DNA of 64,000 nucleotides. Source: Thermoanaerobaculia bacterium (GTDB lineage: Bacteria > Acidobacteriota > Thermoanaerobaculia > Thermoanaerobaculales > Sulfomarinibacteraceae). Below the pieces are notes generated by a model that was not told where the DNA came from, did not search any database, and worked only from the letters and a program-made list of their open reading frames with translations. Where the stretch lies: positions 50,974 to 114,973 of the forward strand of contig JAMOWA010000040.1 in the NCBI GenBank assembly GCA_027061805.1, in the 5' to 3' direction. Below, in pieces: positions 3,097-19,084 of this stretch. Within the stretch, counting starts at the first letter, position 1. Each line of letters starts with the position of its first letter. The translations under genes and the position numbers were made by a program.

Positions 3097-3990
3097 TCAC
3101 GCCTCTGGGCGGACCGTGAGCACGGGGACGGCGGACCGCCGGATGACGCCGTCTGCCACGGAGCCCAGGAGAAGGTGCTCCAGCGGTGAGAGTCCCCGGG
3201 AGGCCAGGATCACGAGGTCGTGTCCACCCTGGTCCGCCTCCTCGAGGATGATCTCGGGGGCCCGTCCCACGGCCACGCGGACCGAGGTCTCGACGTTCGC
3301 CAGGTGCTCCGCGGCGATCCGCTCGAGGGCCTGTGCCGAGCGTTCCCGGATCCTGTCCATGACGTCCTCGGGCATGAGGTCCACGGCGTAGAACTCGGGG
3401 TAGACCACGGGCTCCACCACGTGAAGGAGCGTCACGGAGGCGTGGAGGACCCGGGCCCACGCCGCGGCGGTGGTCACCGCCGCCATGGAGGTCTCGGAGA
3501 AATCCAGTGGCACCAGGATCCGCTCGGGGGAGGCCGGTTCCGCGGTGCTGTCCGTCCGGACCGTCAGGACGGGGATCGGAGAGGTCCGGACCACCTCCTC
3601 GGCGACGGATCCCATGAGGAGGTGCTTGAGGCCCCGCCTGCCGTGCGTTCCCATCACCACGAGATCGCAACCGAGATCGCCCGCGGCCTCCACGATGCTC
3701 TCGGCCGGGGCGATCCCGCGCACCAGGTGGGGGTGGACCACCACGTCCGTCACGGTGTCCCGGGTCCGGCCCAGGAGCTCCCGCGTTCGCTGGTCGCTGC
3801 GATTCATGAGCCGTTCGAGCTCGGCCTGGAGCTCCTCCTCCTGGTCGGGGTCGTCCAGGAGGATGCGGACGTGGAGCAGGTGGACCTCGGCGCCGAACGC
3901 CACGGCGAGCCGTCGGGCCAGGTCGAGGGCGACTCCGGCGGTGGGCGAGAAGTCCGTCGGAACCAGGATGCGGCGGGGTGGTGTGGCCAT
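3097..3990 (-). CDS. Tandem universal stress protein (two UspA domains)
   Basis: Two USP repeats: ILVPTDFS...VVMGTHGRRGLKHLLMGSVAEEVVRTSPIPVLTV and ILVPLDFS...LVILASRGLSPLEHLLLGSVADGVIRRSAVPVLTV. Start moved from ORF-track 4335 to ATG 3990, which has GGAGG 6 nt upstream. Confidence 0.85.
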   Translation of the reverse strand: MATPPRRILVPTDFSPTAGVALDLARRLAVAFGAEVHLLHVRILLDDPDQEEELQAELERLMNRSDQRTRELLGRTRDTVTDVVVHPHLVRGIAPAESIVEAAGDLGCDLVVMGTHGRRGLKHLLMGSVAEEVVRTSPIPVLTVRTDSTAEPASPERILVPLDFSETSMAAVTTAAAWARVLHASVTLLHVVEPVVYPEFYAVDLMPEDVMDRIRERSAQALERIAAEHLANVETSVRVAVGRAPEIILEEADQGGHDLVILASRGLSPLEHLLLGSVADGVIRRSAVPVLTVRPEA

Positions 3991-4174
3991 CGGGAACCTC
4001 CGGGTCCAGTATAGCCCCGGCATGGGAGAAGGGGGGGCGGGGATCGTGGTATGATCCGGTATCACGCGAACGAACTCGGGGTACGAGACCGATGGATGTC
4101 CGGCGTGGAGGCCGGTGCCCCTGTGACGGCCTTCCGTCTTCTCGCAGGTCTCGCGTGATGGGAGGTGAGTGCCC

Positions 4175-4615
4175 ATGAACGATCGGCGGAGGAGTGAGCG
4201 CATTTCCGTGGGACGGGAGATCGTGGGCCGGGTCAGGGCCACGGTTCCCGCCCGGGTTGTGGACATCTCCCGGCATGGGGTGCAGGTTGAGATCCCGGCG
4301 GCACTCCGGCCCTCGGTGGCGTGCGACATCTGCATCCAGGCGCCGGATGGCGAGCTCAGGGTCAGGGCGAGGGTCCAGCGGTGCCGTGCCAGGGCACTCG
4401 CTCCATCGGAAGGCGGCGAGACGCTCCTCGTCTACCGGGCGGGCATGGAGTTCATCGGGTTGGACGACGAGACGTGGCGGCAGTTCGAGAAGCTCCTGGG
4501 TTCTCCGAGGTCCTCCCGCGAGGGCGGGGAGGGTTCCTCCGGTGGCGGCACGCGCCGGAAGGGGCCGGTCCGGATCAAGGTCGACCCGGAGTTCATCCGC
4601 AAGCGCCTGGAGTAG
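4175..4615 (+). CDS. PilZ-domain c-di-GMP receptor
   Basis: RRRSER (RxxxR) and DISRHGVQV (D/NxSxxG) motifs are present. ATG 4175 lies 9 nt after GGAGG, whereas ORF-track GTG 4169 is too close to it. Confidence 0.8.
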   Translation: MNDRRRSERISVGREIVGRVRATVPARVVDISRHGVQVEIPAALRPSVACDICIQAPDGELRVRARVQRCRARALAPSEGGETLLVYRAGMEFIGLDDETWRQFEKLLGSPRSSREGGEGSSGGGTRRKGPVRIKVDPEFIRKRLE

Positions 4616-4696
4616 GCTATTATTGAACCCGGAGAGGGTTCCCGCTGCGGGCCGTCTCCATATCGTGAACATCGCGGAGAGCGGAGGGAGCAGACC

Positions 4697-4900
4697 ATGA
4701 GTATCGTGAAAGTCATCGAGGTGATCGCATCATCGAAGGTCGGGTGGGACGACGCCGCCAGGCAGGCCGTGAAGGAAGCCTCGAAGACGGTCAAGAACAT
4801 CAAGCATTTCTACGCCGAGAACATGACGGCCGTGGTGGAGGGCGACGACATCGTCGAGTACCGCATCAACGGCAAGATCTCCTTCGTCGTCGAGGACTGA
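4697..4900 (+). CDS. Dodecin-family flavin-binding protein
   Basis: The 67-aa product MSIVKVIEVIASSKVGWDDAARQAVKEASKTVKNIKHFYAENMTAVVEGDDIVEYRINGKISFVVED has typical dodecin length and pattern. GGAGGGAG RBS upstream. Confidence 0.8.
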   Translation: MSIVKVIEVIASSKVGWDDAARQAVKEASKTVKNIKHFYAENMTAVVEGDDIVEYRINGKISFVVED

Positions 4901-4981: not shown

Positions 4982-4999
4982 TGTTACGGGTGCGTAACT
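4982..4999 (+). promoter_or_regulatory. Distal activator-type site TGTTAC-N6-GTAACT
   Basis: Read directly as tgttac gggtgc gtaact. Its centre lies 93 bp upstream of the proximal palindrome. Confidence 0.5.
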
Positions 5000-5073
5000 T
5001 GTTTTGCCTATCTGGCCGGGACTCAGGACTTTCCATGCTCTCGATGGAGGCCCCTCTCCTCCATCCCTGCCTG

Positions 5074-5093
5074 ATGTTACTGATCAGTAACAT
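5074..5093 (+). promoter_or_regulatory. Perfect 20-bp palindrome ATGTTACTGATCAGTAACAT (candidate bEBP upstream activating sequence)
   Basis: Perfect reverse-complement symmetry checked by hand. The core is TGTTAC-N6-GTAACA, centred about 96 bp upstream of the -24 GG at 5179-5180. Confidence 0.65.
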
Positions 5094-5177
5094 TCCAGGC
5101 CGCTGGCGAACGCCGGCTCTCGTTCCATAAATCAAGGACATTCAGTGGCTTGAGGCTTCCCGATACGCCTGTTTCCG

Positions 5178-5193
5178 TGGCATGGGCGTTGCA
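5178..5193 (+). promoter_or_regulatory. Sigma-54 (-24/-12) promoter of the dsr unit
   Basis: TGGCAT-GGGCG-TTGCA has the canonical GG-N10-GC spacing and matches the TGGCAC-N5-TTGCW consensus. Confidence 0.65.
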
Positions 5194-5206
5194 CGGTGGC
5201 GTCGTG

Positions 5207-5797
5207 ATGGCGACGGCACCGCGGTCTCCGACGTTTGGCGGGCTTCTCGGGAAGCACCGGGCCGCCCTTCTGGCCTGCTGGAGGGAGGCGGCCTTGGAGG
5301 TCTACCCCGACGAGACGCGCCGGTTCCTCCTGCGGGAGAAGGACCGCTTCCAGAACCCCGTGGGTGCCGTCCTCGCGAGCACGCTGGAGGATCTCCTGGA
5401 CGGGCTCCTCGATGGCGCGCCCGGCGGGGAGCTCGCGGCGAGGTGCGACGGCCTGATCCGGGTCCGGGCGGTCCAGGACCTGGGCGCGGCCCGTTCTGTC
5501 GGCTTCGTCTTCGCCCTGCGGGAGGCTGCGCGGAGTCTCCTGGCCCACGAGGACGACGGTGCGGCGGTCCTCCTGGAGCTCCAGGAGCTGGACCGCCGCC
5601 TGGATCGCCTCGCACTGGTGCTCTTCGAGCGCTACGTGGCCTGTCGCGACGAGATGGCCGGAATCCGTGTGCGGGAGGGGCAGCGTCGGGTGGCGGTGCT
5701 CCTGAGACGGCTGGAACGGCTGGAGTCCGGAGGGGCGGAGACCCCCCCTCCGGTGGGGAGTCCTGAGCTTCGAGACAAGGGAGGTTGCAACCCATGA
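5207..5797 (+). CDS. RsbRD_N-like helical domain protein, first gene of the dsr unit
   Basis: WREAALEVYPDETRRFLLREKDRFQNPVG resembles the RsbRD N-terminal domain family (DRFxNPVG) as I recall it. ATG 5207 is the only in-frame ATG downstream of the sigma-54 promoter (GTG 5204 also in frame). The stop overlaps the dsrM ATG (ATGA). Confidence 0.55.
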   Translation: MATAPRSPTFGGLLGKHRAALLACWREAALEVYPDETRRFLLREKDRFQNPVGAVLASTLEDLLDGLLDGAPGGELAARCDGLIRVRAVQDLGAARSVGFVFALREAARSLLAHEDDGAAVLLELQELDRRLDRLALVLFERYVACRDEMAGIRVREGQRRVAVLLRRLERLESGGAETPPPVGSPELRDKGGCNP

Positions 5798-6786
5798 GAG
5801 CCTGGTCGGCGTTGGCAATCGTGGTGGTGCTGCTGGGGGTGGCGTGGGTCGCCTCCGGGACGGGAGGGGGGCAGGCCGTCATCGGGACCGTGATCCCGTA
5901 CCTCGCGGTGGCCCTGTTCCTCGCAGGGATGGTGGCCCGGGTGATCGGATGGGCCCGCTCGCCCGTCCCGTTCCGGATCACAACCACCTGCGGACAGCAG
6001 CGGTCGCTGCCGTGGATCCCCTCGGCGACCCTGGACAACCCCCACACAGGCTGGGGGGCTGTCCGCAGGATGGTGCTGGAGGTGCTGCTGTTCCGGTCGC
6101 TCTTCCGGAACACCCGCAGCGAGCTCAGGCCCACCGAGAGGCTGGTGTACGAGTCGGACAAGGTTCTCTGGGTGGCGGCCCTGGCCTTCCACTGGAGCTT
6201 CCTGGTGATCCTGCTCCGGCACCTGAGGTTCTTCCTGGAGCCGATTCCCCGCCTGGTCCCGCTGCTGGAGACCGTCGATGGCTTCTTCCAGCTGACGGTT
6301 CCCACCCTCTTCCTCACGGATGCCCTCATCGTGGCGGCGCTCCTCTATCTCCTGGGCCGGAGGGTCCTCAACGTCCAGCTGCGCTACCTCTCGCTCGCCG
6401 CCGACTACTTTCCCCTCTTCGTCCTGCTGACCATCGCCACCACGGGGATCCTCATGCGGTACGTCACGAAGGTGGACCTGGTGGGTGCCAAGGAGCTGGC
6501 CATGGGGCTGGTGACCTTCCACCCGGTGGTCCCCCAGGGGATCGGGACCCTCTTCTTCGTGCACCTGTTCTTCGTGAGCGTGCTGTTCGCCTACTTTCCT
6601 TTCTCCAAGCTGGTCCACATGGGGGGCGTCTTCCTGAGCCCCACGCGGAACCTGGCCAACAACAACCGCGCCCGGCGCCACGTCAGCCCCTGGAACCCCG
6701 AGGTGAAGGTCCACACCTACGAGCAGTGGGAAGAGGAGTTCCGGGACAAGCTGGTGGCGGCCGGAATCCCCCTGGACAAGGAGTGA
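5794..6786 (+). CDS. dsrM: DsrM, NarI-like dihaem b membrane subunit
   Basis: Polytopic membrane protein of DsrM size sitting first in an M-K-J-O-P gene order. AAGGGAGG lies 9 nt before ATG 5794, so the ORF-track TTG 5785 is less likely. Confidence 0.85.
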   Translation: MRAWSALAIVVVLLGVAWVASGTGGGQAVIGTVIPYLAVALFLAGMVARVIGWARSPVPFRITTTCGQQRSLPWIPSATLDNPHTGWGAVRRMVLEVLLFRSLFRNTRSELRPTERLVYESDKVLWVAALAFHWSFLVILLRHLRFFLEPIPRLVPLLETVDGFFQLTVPTLFLTDALIVAALLYLLGRRVLNVQLRYLSLAADYFPLFVLLTIATTGILMRYVTKVDLVGAKELAMGLVTFHPVVPQGIGTLFFVHLFFVSVLFAYFPFSKLVHMGGVFLSPTRNLANNNRARRHVSPWNPEVKVHTYEQWEEEFRDKLVAAGIPLDKE

Positions 6787-6789
6787 GCG

Positions 6790-8433
6790 ATGGCGGAGAA
6801 GAGCCCGCAGGAACTGCTGCAGATCGACTACCGCCCGCCCCGGCGGGACTGGATGGACCCCTCCATCGACTTCGAGGCCCGCCGGGGAACCTGGTCGTAC
6901 CCCGCCGCTCCGAAGAACCTGGAGTACCTGGGGTTCCCCAACCCGCGGGAGTGGTCGCCCACGGACGAGGACTGGAAGCTGCCCGACAACTGGCAGGAGA
7001 TCATCCACCAGGGGCTGAAGGACCGGCTGGAGAGGTTCCGCTCCCTGAAGGTGTTCATGGACATCTGCGTCCGGTGCGGGGCGTGCGCCGACAAGTGCCA
7101 CTTCTTCATCGGTTCGGGTGATCCCAAGAACATGCCGGTGCTCCGGGCGGAGCTGCTGCGCTCCATCTACCGCAGGGACTTTACCACCACGGGGAAGATC
7201 CTGGGACGGCTGGCCGGGGGGAGGGAGCTCACGGCCGAGGTCCTCAAGGAGTGGTACTACTACTTCTACCAGTGCACCGAGTGCCGCCGCTGCTCGGTGT
7301 TCTGCCCCTACGGGATCGACACGGCGGAGATCACCATGATCGCCCGGGAGCTCCTCAACCTGGTGGGGCTCAACATCAACTGGGTGATGGAGCCGGTGGC
7401 CAACTGCGACCGCACGGGGAACCACCTGGGCATCCAGCCCCACACGTTCAAGGACAACATCGAGTTCCTCTGCGACGAGCTGGCCGACATCACCGGGATC
7501 AAGATCAGCCCCTCCATCAACCGCAAGGGCGCCGAGGTCCTGTTCATCGTGCCCTCGGCCGACTACTTCGCGGACCCCGGCATCTTCACCTTCATGGGGT
7601 ACCTCCTGCTCTTCGAGCACATCGGCCTGGACTACACCCTGAGCGCCTACGCCTCGGAAGGCGGCAACTTCGGGCTCTTCACCTCCCACGAGACCATCAA
7701 GCGGCTCAACTACAAGATGTACGCCGAGGCGAAGAGGCTGGGGGTCAGGTGGATCCTGGGCGGGGAGTGCGGCCACATGTGGCGGGTTGTCCACCAGTAC
7801 ATGGACACGCTCAACGGGCCGGCGGACTTCCTCGAGGTGCCCCGGTCGCCCGTCACCGGGACCGTGTTCGAGAACGCCGCCTCCACGAAGATGACCCACA
7901 TCTGCGAGTTCACGGCCGACCTCATCGCCAACGGCAAGCTCAGGCTCGATCCCTCGCGCAACGACCACCGCCGGGTGACCTTCCACGATTCCTGCAATCC
8001 CGCCCGGGCGATGGGGATCCTGGAGGAGCCCCGCCACATCCTCAGGACGGTGTGCAACAACTTCTTCGAGATGCCGGACAACACCATCCGCGAGCAGACA
8101 TTCTGCTGCGGTGGCGGGGCGGGGCTGGGCAACGACGAGAACATGGAGATGCGGCTGCGGGGAGGCCTTCCCCGGGCCAACGCCGTGAAGTTCGTCCACG
8201 AACGGCATGGCGTGAACCTGCTGACCTGCATCTGTGCCATCGACAGGGCCACCCTGCCCCCGCTCGTGGAGTACTGGGTCCCCGGCGTGGAGGTCTCCGG
8301 GGTCCACGAGCTGGTGGGCAACGCCCTGGTGATGGATGGGGAGACCCGCCGGACCACGGACCTGAGGGGTGAGCCGCTCGAGGGGGTTGCGGATGAACCC
8401 TCTCCGGAGGCGGAGGAGGCGAGCCATGTATGA
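6790..8433 (+). CDS. dsrK: DsrK, HdrD-like CCG-domain Fe-S catalytic subunit
   Basis: Ferredoxin-type motifs CVRCGACADKC and CTECRRCSVFCP are present, plus a C-terminal CCG signature FCCGGGAG. Length is about 547 aa. Confidence 0.9.
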   Translation: MAEKSPQELLQIDYRPPRRDWMDPSIDFEARRGTWSYPAAPKNLEYLGFPNPREWSPTDEDWKLPDNWQEIIHQGLKDRLERFRSLKVFMDICVRCGACADKCHFFIGSGDPKNMPVLRAELLRSIYRRDFTTTGKILGRLAGGRELTAEVLKEWYYYFYQCTECRRCSVFCPYGIDTAEITMIARELLNLVGLNINWVMEPVANCDRTGNHLGIQPHTFKDNIEFLCDELADITGIKISPSINRKGAEVLFIVPSADYFADPGIFTFMGYLLLFEHIGLDYTLSAYASEGGNFGLFTSHETIKRLNYKMYAEAKRLGVRWILGGECGHMWRVVHQYMDTLNGPADFLEVPRSPVTGTVFENAASTKMTHICEFTADLIANGKLRLDPSRNDHRRVTFHDSCNPARAMGILEEPRHILRTVCNNFFEMPDNTIREQTFCCGGGAGLGNDENMEMRLRGGLPRANAVKFVHERHGVNLLTCICAIDRATLPPLVEYWVPGVEVSGVHELVGNALVMDGETRRTTDLRGEPLEGVADEPSPEAEEASHV

Positions 8434-8839
8434 CGGAGGGAAGATCGTCGCCGGCCTCGTGGTGTTCCTCGTCCTGGTGACGGTGCCCGTCTGGCTGAAC
8501 GCCCTGGCGGGCGGGACGCCCCGGGCACCGGAGCTCGAGCTGCCCCGCGACGAGAGCCGGTGCGTGGAGCCCGCTGCGGTGATGCGGGCCACCCACATGG
8601 AGCTGCTCGACACCTGGCGGGACAGCGTGGTGCGTTCCGACGATCGCTTCTTCACCCTCGAGGACGGCCGGAGGGTGGAACGCAGCCTGAGCCGGACCTG
8701 CCTGGGGTGCCACGACAGGAAGGATGCCTTTTGCGACCGCTGCCACGACTACCTGGCGGTCTCGCCCTACTGCTGGGATTGCCACGTGATCCCCGAGGGC
8801 GGGACGGCCCTGGCGGCGGCGGGAGGGGGTGTGCGATGA
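8426..8839 (+). CDS. dsrJ: DsrJ, trihaem periplasmic cytochrome c
   Basis: N-terminal anchor KIVAGLVVFLVLVTVPVWL and three CxxCH motifs (CLGCH, CDRCH, CWDCH). ATG 8426 overlaps the dsrK end by 8 nt. Confidence 0.85.
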   Translation: MYDGGKIVAGLVVFLVLVTVPVWLNALAGGTPRAPELELPRDESRCVEPAAVMRATHMELLDTWRDSVVRSDDRFFTLEDGRRVERSLSRTCLGCHDRKDAFCDRCHDYLAVSPYCWDCHVIPEGGTALAAAGGGVR

Positions 8840-9609
8840 CGGTGGACCGGAGAACGTTCCTCAAGATCGCGGGCCTCGGAGCGCTGGGGACCACGGGGGT
8901 GTACTCGCTGCCCGTGCTGGGATCGCCGGAGAGCGGTCCGGGGGGGCACGGGGTGCCGGCCCCGGGTGGGACGCGGTGGGGCATGGTGATCGACCTGGCG
9001 GCGTGCCGCCACGACGAGGGGTGCCGGGACTGCATCGAGGTCTGCGGCAGGGTCCACAACGTCCCCCACCACGACGATCCCCGCCACGAGATCAAGTGGA
9101 TCTGGAAGGTGCCCTACCCCGAGGCCTTCCCCATGCAGCAGCACGAGTACCAGGAGCCGGCGCTGCTGGGGATGGCCGTCCCGGTGATGTGCAACCACTG
9201 CGACAACCCCCCCTGTGTGAGGGTCTGCCCCACACAGGCCACGTGGAAGCGGTCCGACGGGGTCGTCATGATGGACTGGCACCGCTGCATCGGCTGCCGC
9301 TACTGCATGGCGGCCTGCCCCTACGGCTCCCGGAGCTTCAACTGGGTGGAGCCCCGGGAGGCGCTGGAACACCAGGACCCCGGGTTCCCCACGCGGACCC
9401 GTGGCGTGGTGGAGAAGTGCAACTTCTGCGAGGAACGGCTGGCGAAGAACGAGCTTCCGGCCTGTGTGACCGCCTGCCCGCACGGGGCGCTGACCTTCGG
9501 CAACCTGGCGGACCCCGACTCGCCCGTGCGGCGGATCCTTGCGGGGCGCATGGCGATCCGCCGGAAGCCCTCCCTGGGGACCCACCCCGAAATCTTCTAC
9601 CTGGTGTGA
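8836..9609 (+). CDS. dsrO: DsrO, Tat-exported 4Fe-4S ferredoxin subunit
   Basis: Tat signal MTVDRRTFLKIAGLGALG. Cluster motifs CNHCDNPPCVRVCP, CIGCRYCMAACP and CNFCEERL..PACVTACP. ATGA overlap with the dsrJ stop. Confidence 0.9.
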   Translation: MTVDRRTFLKIAGLGALGTTGVYSLPVLGSPESGPGGHGVPAPGGTRWGMVIDLAACRHDEGCRDCIEVCGRVHNVPHHDDPRHEIKWIWKVPYPEAFPMQQHEYQEPALLGMAVPVMCNHCDNPPCVRVCPTQATWKRSDGVVMMDWHRCIGCRYCMAACPYGSRSFNWVEPREALEHQDPGFPTRTRGVVEKCNFCEERLAKNELPACVTACPHGALTFGNLADPDSPVRRILAGRMAIRRKPSLGTHPEIFYLV

Positions 9610-9616
9610 GGTGACC

Positions 9617-10774
9617 ATGCTGGAGAACGCCTTCCACGGAGACCGCCGGTACTGGACCTGGATCGGGTTCCTCCTCGTCCTCATGGGCGTCGGGGCCTTC
9701 TTCTACCTCCAGCAGCTGAGGTACGGCCTGGGAATCACCGGCATGAGCCGGGACGTGAGCTGGGGGTTCTACATCGCGCAGTTCACCTTCCTGGTGGGGA
9801 TCGCCGCCTCGGCCGTGATGGTGGTGCTGCCCTACTACCTCCACGACGTGAAGGTCTTCGGGCGGATCACGGTGCTCGGAGAGTTCATCGCCGTGTCGGC
9901 CGTCACCATGTGCCTGGCCTTCATCATCATCGACCTGGGCCAGCCCCAGCGGGCGCTCAACATGGTGCTCCACCCGAGTCCCCGGTCCATCCTCTTCTGG
10001 GACATGATCGTGCTCAACGGCTACCTGGTGCTCAACGTGATCATCACGAGGGTCACGCTGGACGCCGAGCGCAACGGCGAGGCGCCCCCGCGCTGGATCA
10101 GGCCGGTGATCATCCTGTCCATCCCCTGGGCCATCAGCATCCATACCGTGACGGCGTTCATCTACTCGGGCCTCGCGGCGCGGCCCTTCTGGATGACCGC
10201 CATCCTGGCGCCCCGATTCCTGGCCTCGGCCTTCTCCTCGGGTCCCGCCCTGCTGATCCTGCTCTGCCTGATCCTGATCCGCTTCACGAAGTTCGACCCG
10301 GGCTGGGAGGCCATCCAGAAGCTGGCCCTGGTGGTCACCTACGCGGTGCTGGCCAACATCTTCTTCGTGCTCATGGAGCTGTTCACGGCCCTGTACAGCG
10401 ACATTCCGGAACACCTCCTCCACTTCAGGTACCTCTACCTCGGCCTCGACGGGCACCACGAGCTGGTGCCCTGGATGTGGACGTCGGCCTTCCTGGTGGT
10501 GGCCTCGGCGGTCATCCTGGTGACCCCGAGGCTCCGGAGGCAGAAACGCTGGCTGGTGGCGGCCTGCATCGGCGTTGTGGTGGCCATGTGGATCGAGAAG
10601 GGCCTGGGGATGGTGGTCACGGGCTTCGTACCCTCGCCGCTCGAGACGGTGACCCGCTACGTTCCGACCTTCCCCGAGGTGGCCATCACCGTGTCCGTGT
10701 ACGCCCTGGGAGCCCTCATGGTGACGGTCTTCTATCGGATCGCCCTGTCCGTCCGCGGGGAGCTGGCGGGATAG
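9617..10774 (+). CDS. dsrP: DsrP, NrfD/PsrC-like integral membrane quinone-interacting subunit
   Basis: About 385-aa polytopic membrane protein directly after dsrO. Start set at ATG 9617 (MLENAFHGDRRYWTWIGFLLVL). Confidence 0.85.
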   Translation: MLENAFHGDRRYWTWIGFLLVLMGVGAFFYLQQLRYGLGITGMSRDVSWGFYIAQFTFLVGIAASAVMVVLPYYLHDVKVFGRITVLGEFIAVSAVTMCLAFIIIDLGQPQRALNMVLHPSPRSILFWDMIVLNGYLVLNVIITRVTLDAERNGEAPPRWIRPVIILSIPWAISIHTVTAFIYSGLAARPFWMTAILAPRFLASAFSSGPALLILLCLILIRFTKFDPGWEAIQKLALVVTYAVLANIFFVLMELFTALYSDIPEHLLHFRYLYLGLDGHHELVPWMWTSAFLVVASAVILVTPRLRRQKRWLVAACIGVVVAMWIEKGLGMVVTGFVPSPLETVTRYVPTFPEVAITVSVYALGALMVTVFYRIALSVRGELAG

Positions 10775-10783
10775 GGAGGCGGG

Positions 10784-12451
10784 GTGGGCGCCGCGGCGCG
10801 CTCCGTTGTGGTGGTCGGCGCCTCGGCGGCGGGGCTCCGGTGCGCGTGCCGGCTGGCGAGGCTCCAGCCCTCCTGGGACGTCCTGGTGGTGGAGGAGCGG
10901 GAGGTCTTCTCGTACGGGGCCTGCGGCCTGCCCTACGTGCTCTCGGGGGACATCGGCGAGGCCGAGGAGGTCCGGAGGACCGCCTGGGGCGTGGTCCGCG
11001 ACGCGGAGTTCTTCGACGCCTGCAAGGGCGTGAGGGTACTCCCGGCGACGCGCGCCGTGGAGGTCCGTGACGGGGTGCTCGCCGTGGAGGGCCCGTCGGG
11101 CCGTGAGGAGCTCCCCTGGGACGAGCTCGTCCTGGCCACCGGCGCCCGGGCCCGCCGCCTTCCCGGCCAGCCCGACCATCCCGCGGTCCGCACCTTCCAC
11201 ACCTGGGACGACGTGGAGCCGCTCAGGGAGGGGCTGATCCGGGGCCGCATCGGGTCCGTGGCCGTCGTGGGCGCCGGGCCCATCGGGTGTGAGCTGGCGG
11301 AGGCGTTCGTGGCCATGTGGGGGGCGGAGGTGACGCTGCTGGAGGCCATGGCCCACCCCCTCCCCGGCCTGCTGGGTCCCGAGGCCGCCGCGGTGGCCAC
11401 CGGTGTCCTCAAGAGCGAGGGTGTCGCGGTGCGTTGCGGTGCCCCCGTGGAGGCCATCGAGCCCGCCGGGGAGGGCGTGGTGGTGACCGCGGGGGGAGAA
11501 CGGCATGCGGTGGACACCGTGGTGGTGGCCGTCGGGGTGGAGCCCGCCGTGGAGCTGGCCCGCACCGCCGGCGCGGCCCTGGGACCCACCGGCGCCATCG
11601 CGGTGGACGAGCGTCTCGCCACCAGCGTGCCCCACGTCTGGGCGGCCGGCGACTGCATCGAGTGCCGCCACGCCGTCACGGACGGCCCGGTCCACCTCCC
11701 CCTGGGGTCGCTGGCGAACCGCCAGGGGAGGATCCTCGCCAACGTCCTGGCGGGGCGGGACGACCGGTTCGGACCCGTGGCGGGTTCGGTGGCGGTGAAG
11801 GTCTTCGACCTGGAGGTGGCGGCGGTGGGCTGCTCCCTGGAGCGGTCCCTGGCCCACGGTCTCGATGCCGCGGCCGTCTGGATGACCACGGACGCTGCGG
11901 CCCACTACTGGCCGGAGTCCTCGAACCTCCACCTCTGCCTGGTGTACGAGAGGGGCACGGGGCGCGTGCTGGGCCTCCAGGCGGTGGGGCGCCGTGGTGC
12001 GGTCCGGGCCGTGGACGTGGCGGCCCAGCTGGTGGCCCGCGGGGGGACCCTCGGGGAGCTGGAGCACCTGGAGCATGCCTACGCGCCGCCCTTCGCACCG
12101 GCCCTGGACCCCGTGGCTGTGGCGGCCTCCGTGGCGCTCAACGCCTGCGAGGGCGTGACCTGCACCGGACCGCTGGAGCCACCCCCCGGCCGGGTCCTCG
12201 ATGTCCGGCTTCCCGAGGAGATCGGGGAACGCAGGACCCCGTTCCGCGAGGTGCTGGAGCTCCCCCTGCACGAGCTCCGCCGGGCAGAGGTGCCCGGCGG
12301 TCCCGGGGAGCTTCTGGTGGTGTGCGAGCGCGGGACCCGCTCGGCGGAGGCCGTGAGGCTCCTGGCAGCCCGCGGGGTGACCGCGCGCTACCTGGGGGGC
12401 GGCCTCCTGTGGCGGTGGGCTGCCGGGAACGGACAGGGGGGGGCGTCGTGA
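10784..12451 (+). CDS. CoA-disulfide reductase / NADH-dependent persulfide reductase-like flavoprotein with C-terminal rhodanese domain
   Basis: FAD fold VVVVGASAAGLRCA, redox Cys in SYGACGLPY, second Rossmann motif VAVVGAGPIGCE and AAGDC. The C-terminal rhodanese loop is VVCERGTRS (CxxxxR[ST]). GTG start lies after GGGAGG. Confidence 0.8.
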   Translation: MGAAARSVVVVGASAAGLRCACRLARLQPSWDVLVVEEREVFSYGACGLPYVLSGDIGEAEEVRRTAWGVVRDAEFFDACKGVRVLPATRAVEVRDGVLAVEGPSGREELPWDELVLATGARARRLPGQPDHPAVRTFHTWDDVEPLREGLIRGRIGSVAVVGAGPIGCELAEAFVAMWGAEVTLLEAMAHPLPGLLGPEAAAVATGVLKSEGVAVRCGAPVEAIEPAGEGVVVTAGGERHAVDTVVVAVGVEPAVELARTAGAALGPTGAIAVDERLATSVPHVWAAGDCIECRHAVTDGPVHLPLGSLANRQGRILANVLAGRDDRFGPVAGSVAVKVFDLEVAAVGCSLERSLAHGLDAAAVWMTTDAAAHYWPESSNLHLCLVYERGTGRVLGLQAVGRRGAVRAVDVAAQLVARGGTLGELEHLEHAYAPPFAPALDPVAVAASVALNACEGVTCTGPLEPPPGRVLDVRLPEEIGERRTPFREVLELPLHELRRAEVPGGPGELLVVCERGTRSAEAVRLLAARGVTARYLGGGLLWRWAAGNGQGGAS

Positions 12452-13497
12452 GCGTTTCCGGAGCCGGCATCGTGCAGGTGGGCCTCGACCACAGGGACGT
12501 GGGCGCGGAGGCCTACGAGCGCCTGCTGGCCTCGGGATGGTGTTCCGGCCGGCCGGAGCTGCCCGTGGGTGCCGGCATGGTGGCGCTGGCCACCTGCCAC
12601 CGCCGGGAGCTCTACCTGGAGGGGGTGGATCCGGCGCGGGCCCTGGCGCTCTTCGGCGAGTGGGCCGGGGCGGTGGCACCGCCGGAGATCCCCCCGCGGA
12701 TCCGGGTGGGTGTGGAGGCCGGGCGTCACCTGCTCCGCGTCACGGCGGGGCTGGAGTCGGCAGTGCTGGGGGAGGACCAGATCCTGGGGCAGGCCCGGGA
12801 GGCCTACCGGCGCGCCTGTGCCGACCGGCGGGCGGGCCCGGTCCTCCACCGTCTGTTCCACGCCGCGTTCCGGGCGGGCAAGCGCGTCCGGACCGAGACG
12901 GAGCTCGGCCGGGGGGGGCGTTCCCTGGCCGGTGTGGCGGTGTCCTGGCTCGCGTCGGCCGTGGGCGGCCTGAAGGGACGGCGGGTTCTCGTGCTCGGTG
13001 CCGGCGAGATGGCGGCCGTTGCGGCGCAGCGGCTGGTCAGGCGGGGAGCCGGCGAGCTCGTGGTGGCCAACCGGACGCTGGAGCGGGCCCGGGAGCTGGT
13101 CCGCCGGGCGGGGGGGCGAGCGGTCCCCTGGAGCTGGTGGCCCGGGCTGCTCGCGGAGATGGACGGTCTCGTGTGCGCCACCGGCGCCCCGGAGCCCGTG
13201 GTCCGGCGGGAGCACCTGGGGCCGGCCGTGGGACGGCTGGCGGTGGTGGATCTCGCCGTGCCGCGGAACGTGGAGGTGCCGGAGGAGCGGGATCGTGGGG
13301 TGGTGGTGGCCGGGGTGAGCGAGCTGGTGGGCCGGCTGGCCGGCGAGGAGAGGGCGCGCTCCGCCTCCGTGGGGGCCGCGGAGCGGATCGTTGAGGAAGA
13401 GCTCGGAACGTGGACCGGATGGCTGCAGGCCAGGGGAGAGGGGGCCGTCCGGCGGGGTAGGGGTACAGGAGGGCGAAGGGTTGTGAGCGCCGGCTGA
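12448..13497 (+). CDS. hemA: Glutamyl-tRNA reductase
   Basis: ATCHRRELY (catalytic Cys motif), GLESAVLGEDQILGQ and NAD(P)-binding VLVLGAGEMA. GTG 12448 overlaps the upstream stop (GTGA). At 349 aa it is short at the C-terminal dimerisation end. Confidence 0.8.
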   Translation: MSVSGAGIVQVGLDHRDVGAEAYERLLASGWCSGRPELPVGAGMVALATCHRRELYLEGVDPARALALFGEWAGAVAPPEIPPRIRVGVEAGRHLLRVTAGLESAVLGEDQILGQAREAYRRACADRRAGPVLHRLFHAAFRAGKRVRTETELGRGGRSLAGVAVSWLASAVGGLKGRRVLVLGAGEMAAVAAQRLVRRGAGELVVANRTLERARELVRRAGGRAVPWSWWPGLLAEMDGLVCATGAPEPVVRREHLGPAVGRLAVVDLAVPRNVEVPEERDRGVVVAGVSELVGRLAGEERARSASVGAAERIVEEELGTWTGWLQARGEGAVRRGRGTGGRRVVSAG

Positions 13498-13540: not shown

Positions 13541-15316
13541 ATGTTTCCGGTGATGTTGCAGGTGGCTGGGCGATCCTGCCTGGTGGTGGGTGGGGGGGGT
13601 GTCGCCCTGCGCAAGGCCCAGGCCCTGGTGGCGGAGGGGGCGAAGGTGACGGTGGTGGCGCCCGAGGTGGTGGCGCCCCTGGAGGAGATGGCCGCACGGG
13701 GGGAGCTCGAGATCGAGCGGCGGCCCTACAGGCCGGGAGAGGCGGCGGGCCACCGGCTCGTCCTGGCGGCCACCGATGACCGCGAGGTGAACCGGCGCGT
13801 CTTCGACGACGGCGAGGCCGCGGGGGTCTGGGTCAACGTGGCGGACGACCCGGAGCTCTGCGCCTTCCACCTGCCGGGGCGGGTCAGGAGGGGGAGCCTG
13901 GAGATCGACATCTCCTCCGGAGGGAACGCCCCCTTCGCCGTGCGGCGGCTCAGGAGCCTCTTCGAGGCCCGCCTCGAACCCGAGTGGAGCGAGTGGATGG
14001 AGGCCGCGGCGCGGTTCCGCCGGATGGTGCTGGCCAGTGGCCTGGACCGGGCCGCCCAGGAGGCGGCCTTCGATCGCTTCATGGAGCGGACGGTGGACGG
14101 CGAGACCCTGCGGATCCGGGTGCCCGGCGATGAGGAGATGGCCTCGTGGATCGGATCGGGACCCAGCCGGGAGGGCGCCGCACCCACGGGTTCACCGGAA
14201 CCCTGTGGCCCGGAACGCGACGGGAAGGGGTTCGTCACGCTGGTGGGGGCGGGCCCCGGGTGCCCGGGGCTGCTGACGGTCCGGGGGAGGCGGCGTCTCA
14301 TGGAGGCCGACGCGGTGGTGTTCGACCGGCTGGCGACCGGTGCGCTGCCCACGGACCTTCCTCCCGAGACCGAGCTGCACCCCGTGGGCAAGACCGCCGG
14401 ACGCCACCCCGTGCCCCAGGAGGAGATCGTCGCCCTGCTGCTCCGGCTGGCCCGCGAGGGCAGGAAGGTCGTCCGGCTCAAGGGCGGGGATCCCTACATC
14501 TTCGGCAGGGGCGCGGAGGAGGCCGCGGTCCTGGCCTCGGCCGGGGTGCCCTTCGAGGTGGTCCCGGGGGTCACCTCGGGGATCGGTGGCCTGGCGTGGG
14601 CCGGGATTCCCGCCACCAACCGGCGGGAGGCGGTCCGGGTGACCCTCCTGACCGCCCATGAGTGCAGCAAGCCGGAGGGTTCCCAGGTGCGCTGGGACCT
14701 GCTGGCCAGGGACCCGGCCGCCACCCTCGTGGGGTACATGGGCCTCACGGTGCTGCCCGACGTGGTCGCCCGGCTCCTGGAGGAGGGAATGGACCCGGCG
14801 ACGCCGGCGGCCGTGGTGGAGAGGGCGGCCACCTCGGCCCAGCGGAGGGTCGTCGCCACGCTCTCCGGGCTTCCAGAGGCGGTGGCCGCGGCGGGCCTGA
14901 GGCCCCCGGCGCTCTTCGTGATCGGCCCCACGGTTCGCCACGCGGAGGAGCTGGACTGGTTCGCCCGGCGGCCCCTGGCAGGGCAGCGCCTGGCGGTGAT
15001 GGCCCGTCACAGGGAGCTCGTGGAGGCCCTGGAGGACGGAGGCGCCGAGGTGGTGGTCCTGCCGTTGCCGGTGACGCCCGCCGCGCGGCTCGTGGCGGCG
15101 TGCCGGCCCCTGACGGGGTGTGTCCTGCTGGACCCTGCCGAGGTGGAGGTGATGGACGAGGAACGTCAGGCCGGGGCCTGGGGGGACGATCCTGTGGCAT
15201 GGTGTGTGGGAGAGCCGGCCGCACAGCGGGCGCGGGACCTGGGGTGGCCCCGGGTGTGGTCGCTTTCCGTGGAGGTGGGCTGTGAACGCCTGGTGGACGA
15301 GATCGCCGCTCGGTAG
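13541..15316 (+). CDS. cysG: Siroheme synthase-like fusion: precorrin-2 dehydrogenase/ferrochelatase + uroporphyrinogen-III C-methyltransferase + partial HemD-like tail
   Basis: N-terminus CLVVGGGGVALRKAQALVAEGAKVTVVAP (SirC/Met8-type Rossmann fold). Middle region VTLVGAGPGCPGLLTVRG..VVRLKGGDPYIFGRG..VVPGVTS (SUMT). The last ~110 aa resemble half of a uroporphyrinogen-III synthase. Confidence 0.8.
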   Translation: MFPVMLQVAGRSCLVVGGGGVALRKAQALVAEGAKVTVVAPEVVAPLEEMAARGELEIERRPYRPGEAAGHRLVLAATDDREVNRRVFDDGEAAGVWVNVADDPELCAFHLPGRVRRGSLEIDISSGGNAPFAVRRLRSLFEARLEPEWSEWMEAAARFRRMVLASGLDRAAQEAAFDRFMERTVDGETLRIRVPGDEEMASWIGSGPSREGAAPTGSPEPCGPERDGKGFVTLVGAGPGCPGLLTVRGRRRLMEADAVVFDRLATGALPTDLPPETELHPVGKTAGRHPVPQEEIVALLLRLAREGRKVVRLKGGDPYIFGRGAEEAAVLASAGVPFEVVPGVTSGIGGLAWAGIPATNRREAVRVTLLTAHECSKPEGSQVRWDLLARDPAATLVGYMGLTVLPDVVARLLEEGMDPATPAAVVERAATSAQRRVVATLSGLPEAVAAAGLRPPALFVIGPTVRHAEELDWFARRPLAGQRLAVMARHRELVEALEDGGAEVVVLPLPVTPAARLVAACRPLTGCVLLDPAEVEVMDEERQAGAWGDDPVAWCVGEPAAQRARDLGWPRVWSLSVEVGCERLVDEIAAR

Positions 15317-16220
15317 GGCCGTGCTGGGGGTGGTCCTGGTTCTTTCGGCCGGGATCGCTGCCGGTGGGATGCAGCGGGCCGGAGGGCCGGCTCCACGGGT
15401 CGAGCCGCTGCGCCTGGGGGTGGTCGGGTTCTACAACCCCAGGCTCATGTACCTGAAGTACCAGGAGCTGGTGGACTACCTGACGGAGACCACGGGGCGG
15501 AGGTGGGAGCTGGTCATCGGATCCAGCTACGAGGAGACCGTGGAGGGGCTGTGCTCGGGGACGCTGGACCTGGCGTACCTGGGTCCCTTCACCTACGTGC
15601 AGGCCCACGCCCGGTGCGGTGCCCTGCCGGTGGTGCGATTGCGGACACTGGGCCGGGAGACCTATCGGAGCCTCATGCTCGTGCGAACGGACAGCCCCAT
15701 CCGGGAGGTCTCGGACCTCGGGGGCAGGCGTTTCGGGTTCGGGTCTCCCCTCTCCACCTCCTCCCACCTGGTGCCGCGGGCGATCCTCATGGAGGCGGGC
15801 CTTGCTGCGGGCAAGGATGTGGAGTGCCGGTACTTCCGGCATCACGAACGGGCGGCCCGGGCCGTGCTCCTTGGCGAGGTGGAGGCCTGCGGCGTCCGTG
15901 ACATCGTGGGGGAGAAGTACGTGGGTCGGGGCCTGAGGGTGCTGGCGCGCTCGGATCCGATCCCGAACTTCCCGCTGGTGGTGGGACCGGGCGACGACGG
16001 CACCATCCGCCGGATGATCGTCCGGGCGCTGCTGGAGGTGCCGCAGAAGGAGCCGGCCGTCCGTGCGAGGATGGGGTGCTGGGACCGGGAGCTTGCCGGG
16101 GGGTTCCTGCCGGCAGCCGATGCCGACTACGACGGGGTGAGGGTCCTGGCCAGGCGGGTCTTCGGTCCCCGGGCGCTGCTGCTCGGGCCCGGGGCGCTGC
16201 AGTGCGGGGGAGGTGACTGA
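15282..16220 (+). CDS. PhnD-like (phosphonate-type) periplasmic solute-binding protein, sensor-associated
   Basis: LRLGVVGFYNPRLMYLKYQELVDYL..LDLAYLGPFTYV..GFGSPLSTSSHLVPR fits the type-2 PBP Phosphonate-bd family. Start is uncertain (GTG 15282 overlapping cysG, or GTG 15321). Confidence 0.7.
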   Translation: MNAWWTRSPLGRAVLGVVLVLSAGIAAGGMQRAGGPAPRVEPLRLGVVGFYNPRLMYLKYQELVDYLTETTGRRWELVIGSSYEETVEGLCSGTLDLAYLGPFTYVQAHARCGALPVVRLRTLGRETYRSLMLVRTDSPIREVSDLGGRRFGFGSPLSTSSHLVPRAILMEAGLAAGKDVECRYFRHHERAARAVLLGEVEACGVRDIVGEKYVGRGLRVLARSDPIPNFPLVVGPGDDGTIRRMIVRALLEVPQKEPAVRARMGCWDRELAGGFLPAADADYDGVRVLARRVFGPRALLLGPGALQCGGGD

Positions 16221-16223
16221 TCC

Positions 16224-17696
16224 ATGTTCCGGCTGGGCCTCCGGGCCAAGTTCTTCCTGTACTCCAACACCCTCATCGTGGTGACCATGATGCTGGTGAC
16301 CGCGCTGGCCCTGGTCCACGAGAAGAGGCTGCGGTACGAGGCCATCGAGAAGAGGGGCCTCTCGCTGACGGAGGCACTGGCCATTCCCATCACCGACGCG
16401 CTGCTCTACGAGGAGATGGGCCTCGTGGAGGAGAGCGGGCTCATCGAGAACTACATCGAGGAGATCCTGGGGCGCAACCGGGACCTCATGCGGTACGTGA
16501 TCGTGACCGATCCTCAGGGGATCGTGACCCACACCAACCGGTGGGAGCTGCTCGGCAAGCGGTTCGACCGGGCCGTGGGACGGGAGGCCATCGGCAGGGA
16601 GCCCATCGTCGAGGCGCGTGTCACGGAGGACGGGGAAAGGGTCCTGGAGGTGCGGGCACCCCTGGCCATCTCAACCCGGTTCTGGGGCTCCATCACCGTG
16701 GGGTACTCGCTCCGGGCCATCGACCGGGAGATCCGGGAGCTGGCGCGGAAGGCGGCCATCATCGCCCTCATCCTCATGCTGGGAAACTCCATCATGACCG
16801 CCCTCTACGTGGAGACGCTCATCCGCCCGATCCTGGGGCTCTACCGCACCATGCGCCGGGCGGCCCGTGGCGACCTCACCGTGCGGGCGGACGACCGGAG
16901 GGCGGACGAGGTGGGAGGGCTGGCCCGGGCGTTCAACCACATGATGGACGAGCTGGAGGAGGCCAGGGAGCGGGAGAAGGCCCAGCAGGCCCAGCTGGCC
17001 CACACCGAGAAGATGGCTGCCGTGGGCACCCTCGCCGCCGGCGTGGCGCACGAGGTGAACAACCCGCTGGCGGGGATCCTCGGTTGCATCGAGAACCTGC
17101 GGGCCCATCCCGACGACGAGGAGATGCGGTACCGGTACCTGGACCTCATCGCAGACGGTGTGAAGCGGATCGAACGGACGGTCTCGAACCTGCTGGACTT
17201 CTCCAGGCCCCGTCCCATGCAGCCGGTTCCCACGTCGATCAACCACAATCTCCGGCATGTCATGGAGCTCACGGAGTACCAGGTGAGGAAGGCGGGGGTG
17301 GAGGTCCGGCTTCACCTCGACCCGTCCGAACCGCTGGTGCTGGCCGACCACTTCCAGATGGAGCAGCTGTTCCTGAACCTGGTGCTCAACGCCCTCCAGG
17401 CCATGCCCGACGGCGGTGAGCTGACCCTGAACACATCCCGCCGGGACGGGCAGGTTGTGATCGAGGTCCGGGACACCGGGGAGGGCATTCCACCGGAGGT
17501 CCTCGAGAGGATCTTCGATCCATTCTTCACCACCCGCGGGGTCGGGGAGGGGACCGGCCTGGGACTCACGGTGAGTGACACCATCGTCCGGTCACACCGC
17601 GGGACCATCGAGGTGGAGAGCACCGTGGGCCGGGGGACGGTGGTCCGTGTGACCCTTCCCGAGCTCTCGGATGCCGACGACGAAGGGGGTGCGTGA
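16224..17696 (+). CDS. Sensor histidine kinase (2 TM, periplasmic domain, HAMP, HisKA, HATPase)
   Basis: TM segments TLIVVTMMLVTALALV and AAIIALILMLGNSIMTALYV, H-box AAGVAHEVNNPL, N/G boxes LNLVLNALQA and DTGEGI..GTGLGL. Confidence 0.9.
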   Translation: MFRLGLRAKFFLYSNTLIVVTMMLVTALALVHEKRLRYEAIEKRGLSLTEALAIPITDALLYEEMGLVEESGLIENYIEEILGRNRDLMRYVIVTDPQGIVTHTNRWELLGKRFDRAVGREAIGREPIVEARVTEDGERVLEVRAPLAISTRFWGSITVGYSLRAIDREIRELARKAAIIALILMLGNSIMTALYVETLIRPILGLYRTMRRAARGDLTVRADDRRADEVGGLARAFNHMMDELEEAREREKAQQAQLAHTEKMAAVGTLAAGVAHEVNNPLAGILGCIENLRAHPDDEEMRYRYLDLIADGVKRIERTVSNLLDFSRPRPMQPVPTSINHNLRHVMELTEYQVRKAGVEVRLHLDPSEPLVLADHFQMEQLFLNLVLNALQAMPDGGELTLNTSRRDGQVVIEVRDTGEGIPPEVLERIFDPFFTTRGVGEGTGLGLTVSDTIVRSHRGTIEVESTVGRGTVVRVTLPELSDADDEGGA

Positions 17697-19084
17697 TGGC
17701 TCTGCTCTGTGGCAACAGACTTCTCATCGTGGAGGACGAGCCCCTTCTGCGCATCACGATGGCGGACGCCCTGAGGAAGGAGGGGTGGGCGGTGGACGTG
17801 GCGGAGGACGGCGTCAAGGGCAACGCGCTCTTCGAGCGCTCGTTGCACGATGTGGTCCTCACCGACCTGGTGATGCCCCGGATGGACGGCATGGCGCTGC
17901 TCAAGAGGATCAAGGCGCTGCAGCCCGACACCACCGTGGTGATCATCACCGCCCACGGCTCCGTGGATCGTGCGGTGGAGGCCATGAGGGAGGGTGCGGC
18001 GGACTTCATCTCGAAACCGTTCTCCATGGCCCAGCTCCTGGTCCGTCTCAACAACGTGTGCTCGGTCCGGATGCTCAGGGAGCAGAACGTCCGCCTCCAG
18101 GAGCAGCTGGAGGAGCGGTTCTCCTTCTCCAACATCATCGGCAAGAGCAAGAAGATGTTCGAGGTCTTCGAGCTCATCAAGGTGGTGGCCGATTCCGAGG
18201 CCAGCGTCCTGGTCCTGGGGGAGAGTGGTACCGGCAAGGAGCTGGTGGCCTCGGCCATCCACTACAACTCACCCCGGAGGACCAAGCCGTACATCCGGGT
18301 GAGCTGTGCGTCGCTGCCCGAGTCGCTCATCGAGTCGGAGCTCTTCGGGTACGAGCGCGGGGCGTTCACGGGAGCCAGCGAGCGGCGCATCGGGCGGTTC
18401 GAGGCCGCCAGCGGCGGGACCCTCTTCCTGGACGAGATCGGTGAGCTCCCCCTCTCCTTCCAGGTCAAGCTGCTCCGGGTCCTCCAGGAGCGCCAGATCG
18501 AGCGCCTGGGTTCCAACCGTCCCATCGACATCGACGTCCGGTTCGTCGCGGCGTCGTTGCGGCCCCTGGAGGAGGAGATCGCCGAGAGCCGTTTCCGTGA
18601 GGACCTCTACTTCAGGATCAACACCGTGACCATCCAGCTCCCGCCCCTCCGCGAGCGGCGGGAGGACATCCCACTGATGGCGCAGTCGTTTCTCCAGGAG
18701 TTCGCCCAGGAGAGGGGCAAGGAGCTGGAGGGGTTCTCCGACGAGGTGCTCGAACGATTCGACAGTTACTCCTGGCCCGGGAACGTGCGGGAGCTGCGCA
18801 ACGTGGTGGAACGGGCGGTGCTCTTCTCACGGGGACCGCTGGTGACGGCGGAGGCCCTCCCCGAGAACCTGATGGCCTCCGCAGGTCCCGTGGTCCGGGA
18901 GGCCGAGCCCGTCCGGAAGGTGGTGAAGCTCCAGGAGGCGGTGGAGAGGGCGGAGGTGGAGGCGATCCGCGCGGCCCTCTCGGCCACCGGTGGACGCCGG
19001 TCCGACGCTGCCGATCTCCTGGGGATCAGCCGGAAGACCCTGTGGGAGAAGATGCGGAACTACGGGATCCAGCACGATGGGTAG
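17696..19084 (+). CDS. NtrC-family sigma-54-dependent response regulator (REC + AAA+ + Fis-type HTH)
   Basis: REC domain with [13 protein letters not shown], Walker A GESGTGKE, intact [15 protein letters not shown], and C-terminal [24 protein letters not shown]. The ATG overlaps the kinase stop. Confidence 0.9.

Follow-up and report, generated by a model that had tools for sequence, protein, structure and literature searches.

What switches on the membrane complex of dissimilatory sulfite reduction in an acidobacterium? To our knowledge, the way in which sulfite and sulfate reducers time the synthesis of their Dsr machinery is poorly understood, and the dissimilatory sulfur metabolism of Acidobacteriota is known mainly from metagenomes. 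The question is posed in concrete form by a stretch of 64,000 nucleotides (nt) from a Thermoanaerobaculia bacterium (assembly GCA_027061805.1, contig JAMOWA010000040.1, positions 50,974 to 114,973), here called the window, in which dsrT and the following dsrMKJOP genes are preceded by a sigma-54-type promoter and two similar palindromes. Based on the collective evidence from sequence comparison, it is very probable that these elements represent a functional sigma-54 promoter with its enhancer in front of dsrT. The best explanation of the locus as a whole is enhancer-dependent control of the dsrTMKJOP operon of the kind exerted by the AioXSR three-component system, and this wider reading is considered probable.

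The predicted promoter TGGCATGGGCGTTGCA agrees with the consensus TGGCAC-N5-TTGCW at 10 of the 11 specified positions, and its GG and GC dinucleotides stand 10 nt apart. Upstream of it lie a proximal palindrome, ATGTTACTGATCAGTAACAT, and a distal one, TGTTACGGGTGCGTAACT, with centres 93 base pairs (bp) apart. A preliminary description of this DNA had placed a promoter with exact -24/-12 spacing at this position, a palindrome some 96 bp above its GG and a second site 93 bp further up, all of which is borne out by reading of the sequence, the proximal site being a perfect palindrome over 20 bp. Since the window has a measured G+C content of 68.7% (that of the genome is reported at 69%), motifs containing A and T are improbable by chance. 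Exact matches to TGGCAY-N5-TTGCW number four in the window, compared to 1.56 expected even with one mismatch allowed; TGTTAC-N6-GTAACA with up to two mismatches has three matches (0.15 expected), and GTTAC-N6-GTAAC with up to one mismatch has four (0.13 expected), a count reached in none of 100 shuffles. Three sigma-54 promoters of the window are intergenic and correctly oriented, at 5178 (+), 19307 (+) and 22558 (-); each of them has a GTTAC-type site 95-96 bp from its GG, and all four GTTAC-N6-GTAAC matches fall within 95-189 bp upstream of such a promoter. The fourth sigma-54-like match, an exact TGGCAT-N5-TTGCA at 52523-52538 (+), was set aside: it lies within an ABC-2 permease gene (52323-53150), has no GTTAC site upstream and probably reflects chance or an intragenic sigma-54 site. 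Between enhancer and promoter, an AT-rich island may serve as a bending site or a site of the type bound by integration host factor (IHF), and similar islands occur in most of the orthologous dsrT promoters. The IHF consensus finds no match at 8 of 9 positions anywhere in the window, the spacer being only AT-rich, and an IHF site in the spacer was dropped on that ground.

Scans of genomes and metagenomes and, with greater yield, protein look-ups supplied upstream regions of dsrT from relatives, and these reveal the same arrangement. In eight independent lineages of one Acidobacteriota clade (the window and the loci designated L081, L082/L083, L001/L088, L172, L069, L173-L175 and L176) a sigma-54 promoter of the form TGGCAY-N5-TTGCA/T occupies the same relative place before dsrT, and in 8/8 a GTTAC-N6-GTAAC site, perfect or matching at 9 of 10 positions, is centred 96-104 bp upstream of the GG. 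DsrM identity among these lineages goes from 87% down to 64%, and the sequence around the promoter elements has otherwise diverged. The distal site is present at 188-201 bp in all five lineages having a PilZ gene upstream (window, L081, L082, L001, L172), with a distal-to-proximal spacing of either 92-93 bp or 103 bp, thus about 9 or 10 helical turns. Over three different operons and many genomes, the distance of a site to the GG remains within 92-104 bp. The combination of sigma-54 promoter and GTTAC site was not found at about 160 other dsrM loci (about 1 Mb), which include those of other Acidobacteriota (L023, L037, L056). That promoter, palindromes and spacing are kept in eight lineages and lacking elsewhere is what would be predicted for a functional enhancer-dependent promoter, and it supports the sigma-54/enhancer geometry proposed earlier. 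As judged from this comparison, the motif set before dsrT is real, functional-looking and clade-specific. A separate observation from the same alignments is an extra GTAAC half-site, located about 45-55 bp above the sigma-54 promoter, in L069 (3326-3330), L176 (around 2355) and L001 (around 1846), with none in the window.

The most likely activator acting on the palindromes is the NtrC-type response regulator encoded at 17696-19084, whose AAA+ domain has the GAFTGA motif intact. Its gene closes a trio with those for a periplasmic binding protein and a sensor histidine kinase. The nearest solved relatives of the binding protein in the PDB are PtxB (8e-29), which binds phosphite, ArrX (4e-18), a sensor of arsenate, and AioX (1e-10), a sensor of arsenite; it has besides a weak NCBIfam match to TtrS. 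In arsenic metabolism, the arsenite oxidase genes aioBA are induced through the three components AioX, AioS and AioR, the last of which is a sigma-54 activator (PMC3673622, PMC5908839). Published AioR sites are described as GTT-N10-AAC, as GTTNC-N6-GNAAC in Burkholderiales and by the footprint GTTCGGATTTCCGAAC (PMC5335332, PMC3673622); GTTAC-N6-GTAAC fits these exactly. The two other GTTAC-bearing sigma-54 promoters of the window flank the regulator gene, and their promoter-site pairs recur at orthologous positions in L085, L086 and L087. The order dsrMKJOP, flavoprotein, (hemA), cysG, binding protein, kinase, regulator is kept in L084, L085, L086 and L087; L168 shows the same order with the binding protein missing. 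Since L081, which includes the dsrT promoter, and L084, which extends from dsrP to the regulator, come from one assembly, that genome holds both the promoter and the linked regulatory system. Position, synteny and the family resemblance of the binding protein thus favour the regulator at 17696-19084, and its activation of the dsrT promoter is held to be reasonably likely. Two regulators had been put forward in the preliminary description, of which this one is credible. The other, at 30511-32358 (+), combines an FHA domain, a degenerate sigma-54-activator-like AAA+ domain and HTH_8; it was rejected as activator, because its Walker A motif is degenerate and LEGPGSGG stands where GAFTGA would be expected, and may be a non-activating DNA-binding relative of the enhancer-binding proteins.

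Several points weigh against this interpretation of promoter, enhancer and activator. Among the window genes scanned there was no rpoN, and we infer its presence in the genome from the GAFTGA activator and the conserved promoters. The absence of sigma-70-like promoters between 4000 and 23000, which by itself speaks for the interpretation, comes from a scan that used the E. coli consensus. The distal palindrome and the TTGTTTTG that follows it (4983-5008) scored as a weak intrinsic-terminator-like hairpin 83 nt after the dodecin stop codon and could be a weak terminator of the dodecin gene. The last point would also suit a very improbable explanation, in which the palindromes would be bound as operators by an ordinary repressor or activator, for instance a redox repressor of the Rex type, with the distal one perhaps just the dodecin terminator; in Desulfovibrio, control of dsrMKJOP by Rex has been predicted (PMC4045070). 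The sites are, however, in the wrong place for a repressor, 96-189 bp above the promoter, and their near-constant distance to the GG, noted above, speaks for an enhancer, while the distal sites of L081, L082, L001 and L172 are without T-run and two of them are not palindromic hairpins. The Rex box reads TGTGA-N6-TCACA, in an operator TTGTGAA-N4-TTCACAA that overlaps a sigma-70 promoter. With TGTTA-N8-TAACA the half-sites found here are 2 bp further apart and have another sequence, and they lie far upstream of a sigma-54 promoter in a different phylum; a Rex operator was rejected on these grounds. Less improbable, yet still unlikely, is an activation of the same promoter and palindromes by a different sigma-54 enhancer-binding protein encoded outside the window, possibly a paralogue with the same helix-turn-helix; the targets of the two-component system next door would then be confined to its own neighbourhood or be other genes altogether. 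Within a very large family (76-95% identity) the helix-turn-helix of the regulator hardly varies, which leaves its specificity unassignable from sequence, and the orthologous loci L168 and L169 have neither GTTAC site nor sigma-54 promoter beside the regulator gene. Regulator and motif therefore do not always go together, and the sites could be bound by a paralogue encoded elsewhere. Bacteria with sigma-54 often encode many such activators (PMC4641369). Compared against plasmids with tblastn, the regulator gave only generic NtrC-family hits of at most 46% identity (the best AioR candidate, a protein of Bosea sp. AS-1, was discarded for having no aio context), and the binding protein is nearer to the phosphite-binding PtxB than to AioX. 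In favour of the neighbouring regulator, by contrast, are the position of its gene between the two other motif-bearing promoters, in the window as in L085-L087, the synteny of the trio with dsrMKJOP in at least five loci, the lack of GAFTGA in the only other activator-like protein of the window, and the agreement of the motif with that of AioR, the regulator of a homologous three-component design (PMC5335332).

How dsrT begins is a question of its own, and it too has a competing answer. The preliminary description had placed the promoter in front of dsrMKJOP and regarded the first gene as near-leaderless, with GTG 5204 and ATG 5207 in frame; the gene is dsrT by its Pfam RsbRD_N match, not dsrM, and the near-leaderless start gains support from comparison. 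DsrT is an RsbRD paralogue typically syntenic with dsrMK(JOP) (PMC8477390). The predicted transcript has only a GUG ahead of the AUG, with no Shine-Dalgarno sequence there, and a weak GGTGG 6 nt before the ATG (5196-5200) falls outside a transcript that begins at 5204. The ATG is at predicted +4 in the window, and L081 has the identical spacing and the same GTGATGGCGACGG; the N-terminal peptide MATAPRSPTFGGLL aligns with MATVPRAPVFGELL of L081, with several synonymous third-position changes, so that the conservation of MATxPRxPxF is at the protein level. From the promoter to the conserved domain, no further in-frame start is present. In the six other lineages, dsrT starts 20-36 nt past the predicted +1, after GGGAGG-type Shine-Dalgarno sequences, and the conserved GGCGG codons follow the promoter at the same distance, with 43 nt in the window compared to 40 nt in L172. 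It therefore seems that in the window lineage the former Shine-Dalgarno sequence and its ATG were lost and an ATG at the 5' end was recruited, with the effect that the former leader would now be coding for about 8 extra N-terminal residues. A leaderless or near-leaderless start of dsrT, with a leader of 3 nt as calculated from promoter geometry, is therefore held to be probable, if less so than the promoter itself. The opposing idea, which we regard as rather doubtful, is that transcription starts upstream or at a shifted position, with GGTGG as ribosome-binding site, or that translation begins at TTG 5150 or TTG 5294. In its favour, the open frame of dsrT extends upstream and includes TTG 5150; the public gene call (P0001, 167 amino acids) begins at TTG 5294, which has GGAGGGAGG in front of it; and strong Shine-Dalgarno sequences are what the organism otherwise uses. 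A start at 5294 would, however, cut away 29 residues including the family-conserved helix R-x-x-x-L-x-x-W-x-x-x-A-L, and one at 5150 would place the conserved promoter inside the coding sequence, against the evidence of six lineages in which dsrT clearly starts downstream of the promoter. Both codons were rejected for these reasons, and the GTGATG spacing and the MATxPRxPxF peptide kept in L081 argue likewise for ATG 5207. The coordinates of all features are collected in Table 1.

Table 1. Features of the dsrT control region, the dsr cluster and the putative regulon (positions of the window unless a locus is named)
Feature	Position	Strand	Remarks
Distal activator site (putative)	4982-4999		core GTTAC-N6-GTAAC 4983-4998; centre 189 bp upstream of -24 GG
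Proximal activator site (putative)	5074-5093		perfect 20-bp palindrome; centre 5083.5, 96 bp upstream of -24 GG
AT-rich island	5127-5146		14/20 bases A/T, between enhancer and promoter
Sigma-54 (-24/-12) promoter (predicted)	5178-5193	+	TGGCAT-N5-TTGCA; GG 5179-5180, GC 5191-5192
Predicted transcription start, G 5204	5204-5206	+	C of -12 GC plus 12 nt; GTG directly before ATG
dsrT (RsbRD_N family)	5207-5797	+	Pfam PF14361; 196 amino acids; start codon at predicted +4
dsrM	5794-6786	+	330 amino acids, NarI-like; Shine-Dalgarno GGGAGG 5779-5784
dsrK	6790-8433	+	Fer4 and CCG domains
dsrJ	8369-8839	+	limits of open reading frame (ORF), true start probably slightly later; NCBIfam cytoc_DsrJ 2.7e-45
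dsrO	8860-9609	+	start approximate; Fer4_11
dsrP	9539-10774	+	ORF limits; NrfD 2e-45
Flavoprotein (pyridine-nucleotide-disulfide oxidoreductase resembling coenzyme A-disulfide reductase)	10784-12451	+	10 nt after dsrP
hemA (glutamyl-tRNA reductase)	12448-13497	+	
cysG-type siroheme synthase	13541-15316	+	
Periplasmic binding protein, PtxB/AioX/ArrX family	15280-16220	+	start approximate; Pfam Phosphonate-bd; signal-peptide-like N-terminus
Sensor histidine kinase	16221-17696	+	transmembrane segment, sCache_3_2, transmembrane segment, HAMP, HisKA, HATPase
NtrC-type response regulator, sigma-54 activator	17696-19084	+	REC, AAA+ with intact GAFTGA, HTH_8; proposed GTTAC-N6-GTAAC binder
Two GTTAC-type sites, CGTTACCGGGAGGGTACG and CGTTACACGGGTGTTACG	19162-19222		centre of CGTTACACGGGTGTTACG 95 bp from GG; kept in L085-L087
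Second sigma-54 promoter (predicted), TGGCACACACCTTGCT	19307-19322	+	just downstream of regulator gene
Candidate sigma-54-dependent small RNA or leader	19333-19565	+	hairpin, CU-rich CCCACUCCUCUCCC 19501-19514, terminator 19534-19556
Porin-like outer-membrane protein gene	21297-22463	-	putative target of third promoter; weak Porin_4 match
Third sigma-54 promoter (predicted), TGGCACAGAGCTTGCT	22543-22558	-	
GTTAC-type site, TGTTACGGAACGGTAATC	22643-22660	-	centre 95 bp upstream of third sigma-54 promoter; kept in L085, L086, L087
Conserved genes upstream of dsrT	window 3097-4900; L081 1924-3691; L172 477-2059; L082 594-1094		
Small RNA candidate in relatives	L084 ~9604-9835; L085 ~10051-10270; L086 ~9566-9822		

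The two promoters that flank the regulator gene point to further members of a putative regulon. The one at 22558 would drive a porin-like gene, whose counterpart at the orthologous position is likewise porin-like in L086/L087 and matches Porin_O_P in L168. Next to this promoter stands a TPR-GGDEF diguanylate cyclase gene (23024-24883). Downstream of the promoter at 19307, some 230 nt fold strongly (z = -3.2), and a GC hairpin with T-run stands before the next ORF. Alignment of the candidate RNA with L084-L086 shows a hairpin having compensatory changes, an invariant single-stranded CCCACTCCTCTCCC and a conserved terminator. A search of Rfam downstream of the 19307 promoter gave no family above the gathering score. 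From these features, the segment looks like a sigma-54-dependent small RNA or an attenuating leader that belongs to the same regulon.

The genes following dsrT encode DsrM, DsrK (CCG/Fe-S), DsrJ (cytochrome c), DsrO (Fe-S) and DsrP (NrfD) consecutively, as expected of a DsrMKJOP operon. The stop codon of dsrT overlaps the start of dsrM as ATGA (5794-5797), with GGGAGG 10 nt upstream, and this overlap suggests that dsrM is translationally coupled to dsrT. From dsrT through the response regulator gene, all on the plus strand, the intergenic gaps are no larger than 44 nt, and the scan found only a weak terminator-like hairpin within the cluster; the 14 kb may be co-transcribed in part or as a whole. 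Among species-representative genomes, the closest DsrM is from an Acidobacteria metagenome-assembled genome (77% identity), the rest having at most 66%, and where homologues of the regulator bear a taxon label, it is Thermoanaerobaculales, Holophagae or Acidobacteriota; the dsr locus is that of an acidobacterium, not of a Desulfovibrio. Homologues of the regulator (P0007-P0126) have 76-95% identity over thousands of metagenome proteins, compared to 62-87% for DsrM within the same clade. The core of cysG, (binding protein), kinase and regulator occurs also without dsr genes nearby, as in L169, where a sulfatase is adjacent. On the upstream side, a gene for a tandem-Usp protein (minus strand), one for a PilZ-domain protein and then the dodecin gene precede dsrT, with dodecin found only in the window and L081.

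From these elements, the following course of events is proposed. The segment 4982-5209 would be the control region of a dsrT-dsrMKJOP operon that may run on through the flavoprotein, hemA, cysG and regulator genes. Sigma-54 RNA polymerase would bind TGGCAT-N5-TTGCA and be unable to open the promoter unaided. A phosphorylated NtrC-type activator would assemble on both GTTAC-N6-GTAAC palindromes, 96 and 189 bp upstream of the GG, loop over the AT-rich spacer and spend ATP to open the promoter. Most likely, that activator would be the response regulator encoded 12 kb downstream, working together with the kinase and the PtxB/AioX-family binding protein. The same activator would also drive the small RNA (or leader) and a small ORF at 19307, as well as the porin gene at 22558. 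The dsrT transcript would begin at G 5204 as GUG-AUG and be translated without a Shine-Dalgarno sequence, and the ATGA overlap would couple dsrM to dsrT.

The signal can be suggested only tentatively. It could be a periplasmic oxyanion, of which sulfite or a related sulfur oxyanion would be the most plausible by analogy, because the sensory genes are linked to dsr genes and to a siroheme synthase, because the putative regulon includes a porin, to which an anion porin (Porin_O_P) corresponds in position in L168, because the sulfatase of L169 adjoins the cysG, binding protein, kinase and regulator core, and because phosphite and arsenite, which the nearest solved relatives bind, resemble sulfite in geometry. 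A joint reading of the locus, equally speculative, would have the trio dedicated to the sensing of sulfite or a closely related sulfur oxyanion and make it the first three-component sigma-54 switch for dissimilatory sulfite reduction. Conceivably, such a switch would induce DsrTMKJOP together with haem and siroheme synthesis, an anion porin and an undescribed small RNA, which could use its invariant CU-rich stretch to mask Shine-Dalgarno sequences, and the dsrT leader turned coding would exemplify a rare sigma-54-driven leaderless messenger RNA.

There exist clear analogies between this arrangement and characterized systems, and equally clear distinctions. As in AioXSR and in ArrXSR/ArxXSR, a PtxB-like binding protein, a kinase and an NtrC-type sigma-54 regulator are encoded together beside a respiratory enzyme operon. 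As in AioXSR also, the target promoter is of the -24/-12 type with a 16-bp inverted repeat GTT-N10-AAC (PMC5335332, PMC3673622). Unlike AioXSR, the target here is dsrTMKJOP, hence dissimilatory sulfite reduction, the host is an acidobacterium and the binding protein is nearer to PtxB; the arsenic genes aio, arr and arx were all absent from the window. ArrXSR and ArxXSR control arsenate reductase and anaerobic arsenite oxidase, in place of the dsr genes considered here. The trio resembles a circuit of the AioXSR type that has been redirected to dissimilatory sulfite reduction. With the promoters of NtrC, DctD and NifA, the dsrT promoter shares the correct GG/GC spacing, two dyad sites about 100-200 bp upstream, a whole-turn spacing between them (93 or 103 bp) and the AT-rich spacer; it differs from those of NtrC and NifA in the activator motif and in the absence of an IHF consensus match from the window. 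TtrSR and ThsSR offer the precedent of a periplasmic module of PhnD/Phosphonate-bd type that senses sulfur oxyanions and induces a respiratory reductase. TtrS unites binding module and kinase in one protein, and its partner regulator is a LuxR/NarL-type activator of sigma-70 promoters; here, unlike TtrSR, the binding protein is separate and the regulator is of the sigma-54 activator type. Rex of Desulfovibrio, the only transcription factor previously proposed for dsrMKJOP that turned up in our literature search, is a repressor at sigma-70 promoters, with another box and spacing and in another phylum, and the predicted target was unresponsive in a rex mutant (PMC4045070). Within the DsrT family, the first gene stands directly before dsrM as is usual (PMC8477390), and what sets the window lineage apart are the approximately 8 additional residues predicted at the N-terminus.

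The preliminary description had taken sigma-54 control of a Dsr membrane complex to be undescribed. Full-text literature searches indeed found no report of it for dsr genes, a paper on the Desulfovibrio sigma-54 regulome does not mention dsr, and a 2025 cross-phylum survey of sigma-54 mentions neither dsr nor Acidobacteria; the design, by contrast, has precedent in AioXSR and ArrXSR. What appears to be new is thus the target, the phylum and probably the ligand, and the design itself is known.

Lastly, the locus has importance in presenting a concrete, conserved and testable circuit of Acidobacteriota, comprising a promoter, a 16-bp enhancer motif, a candidate activator and a candidate periplasmic sensor. 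It would extend the AioXSR design beyond arsenic and suggests that the regulon includes a new small RNA. Should a sulfur oxyanion prove to be the ligand, binding protein and promoter could be used as a biosensor module, in the manner of the sensors for thiosulfate and tetrathionate.

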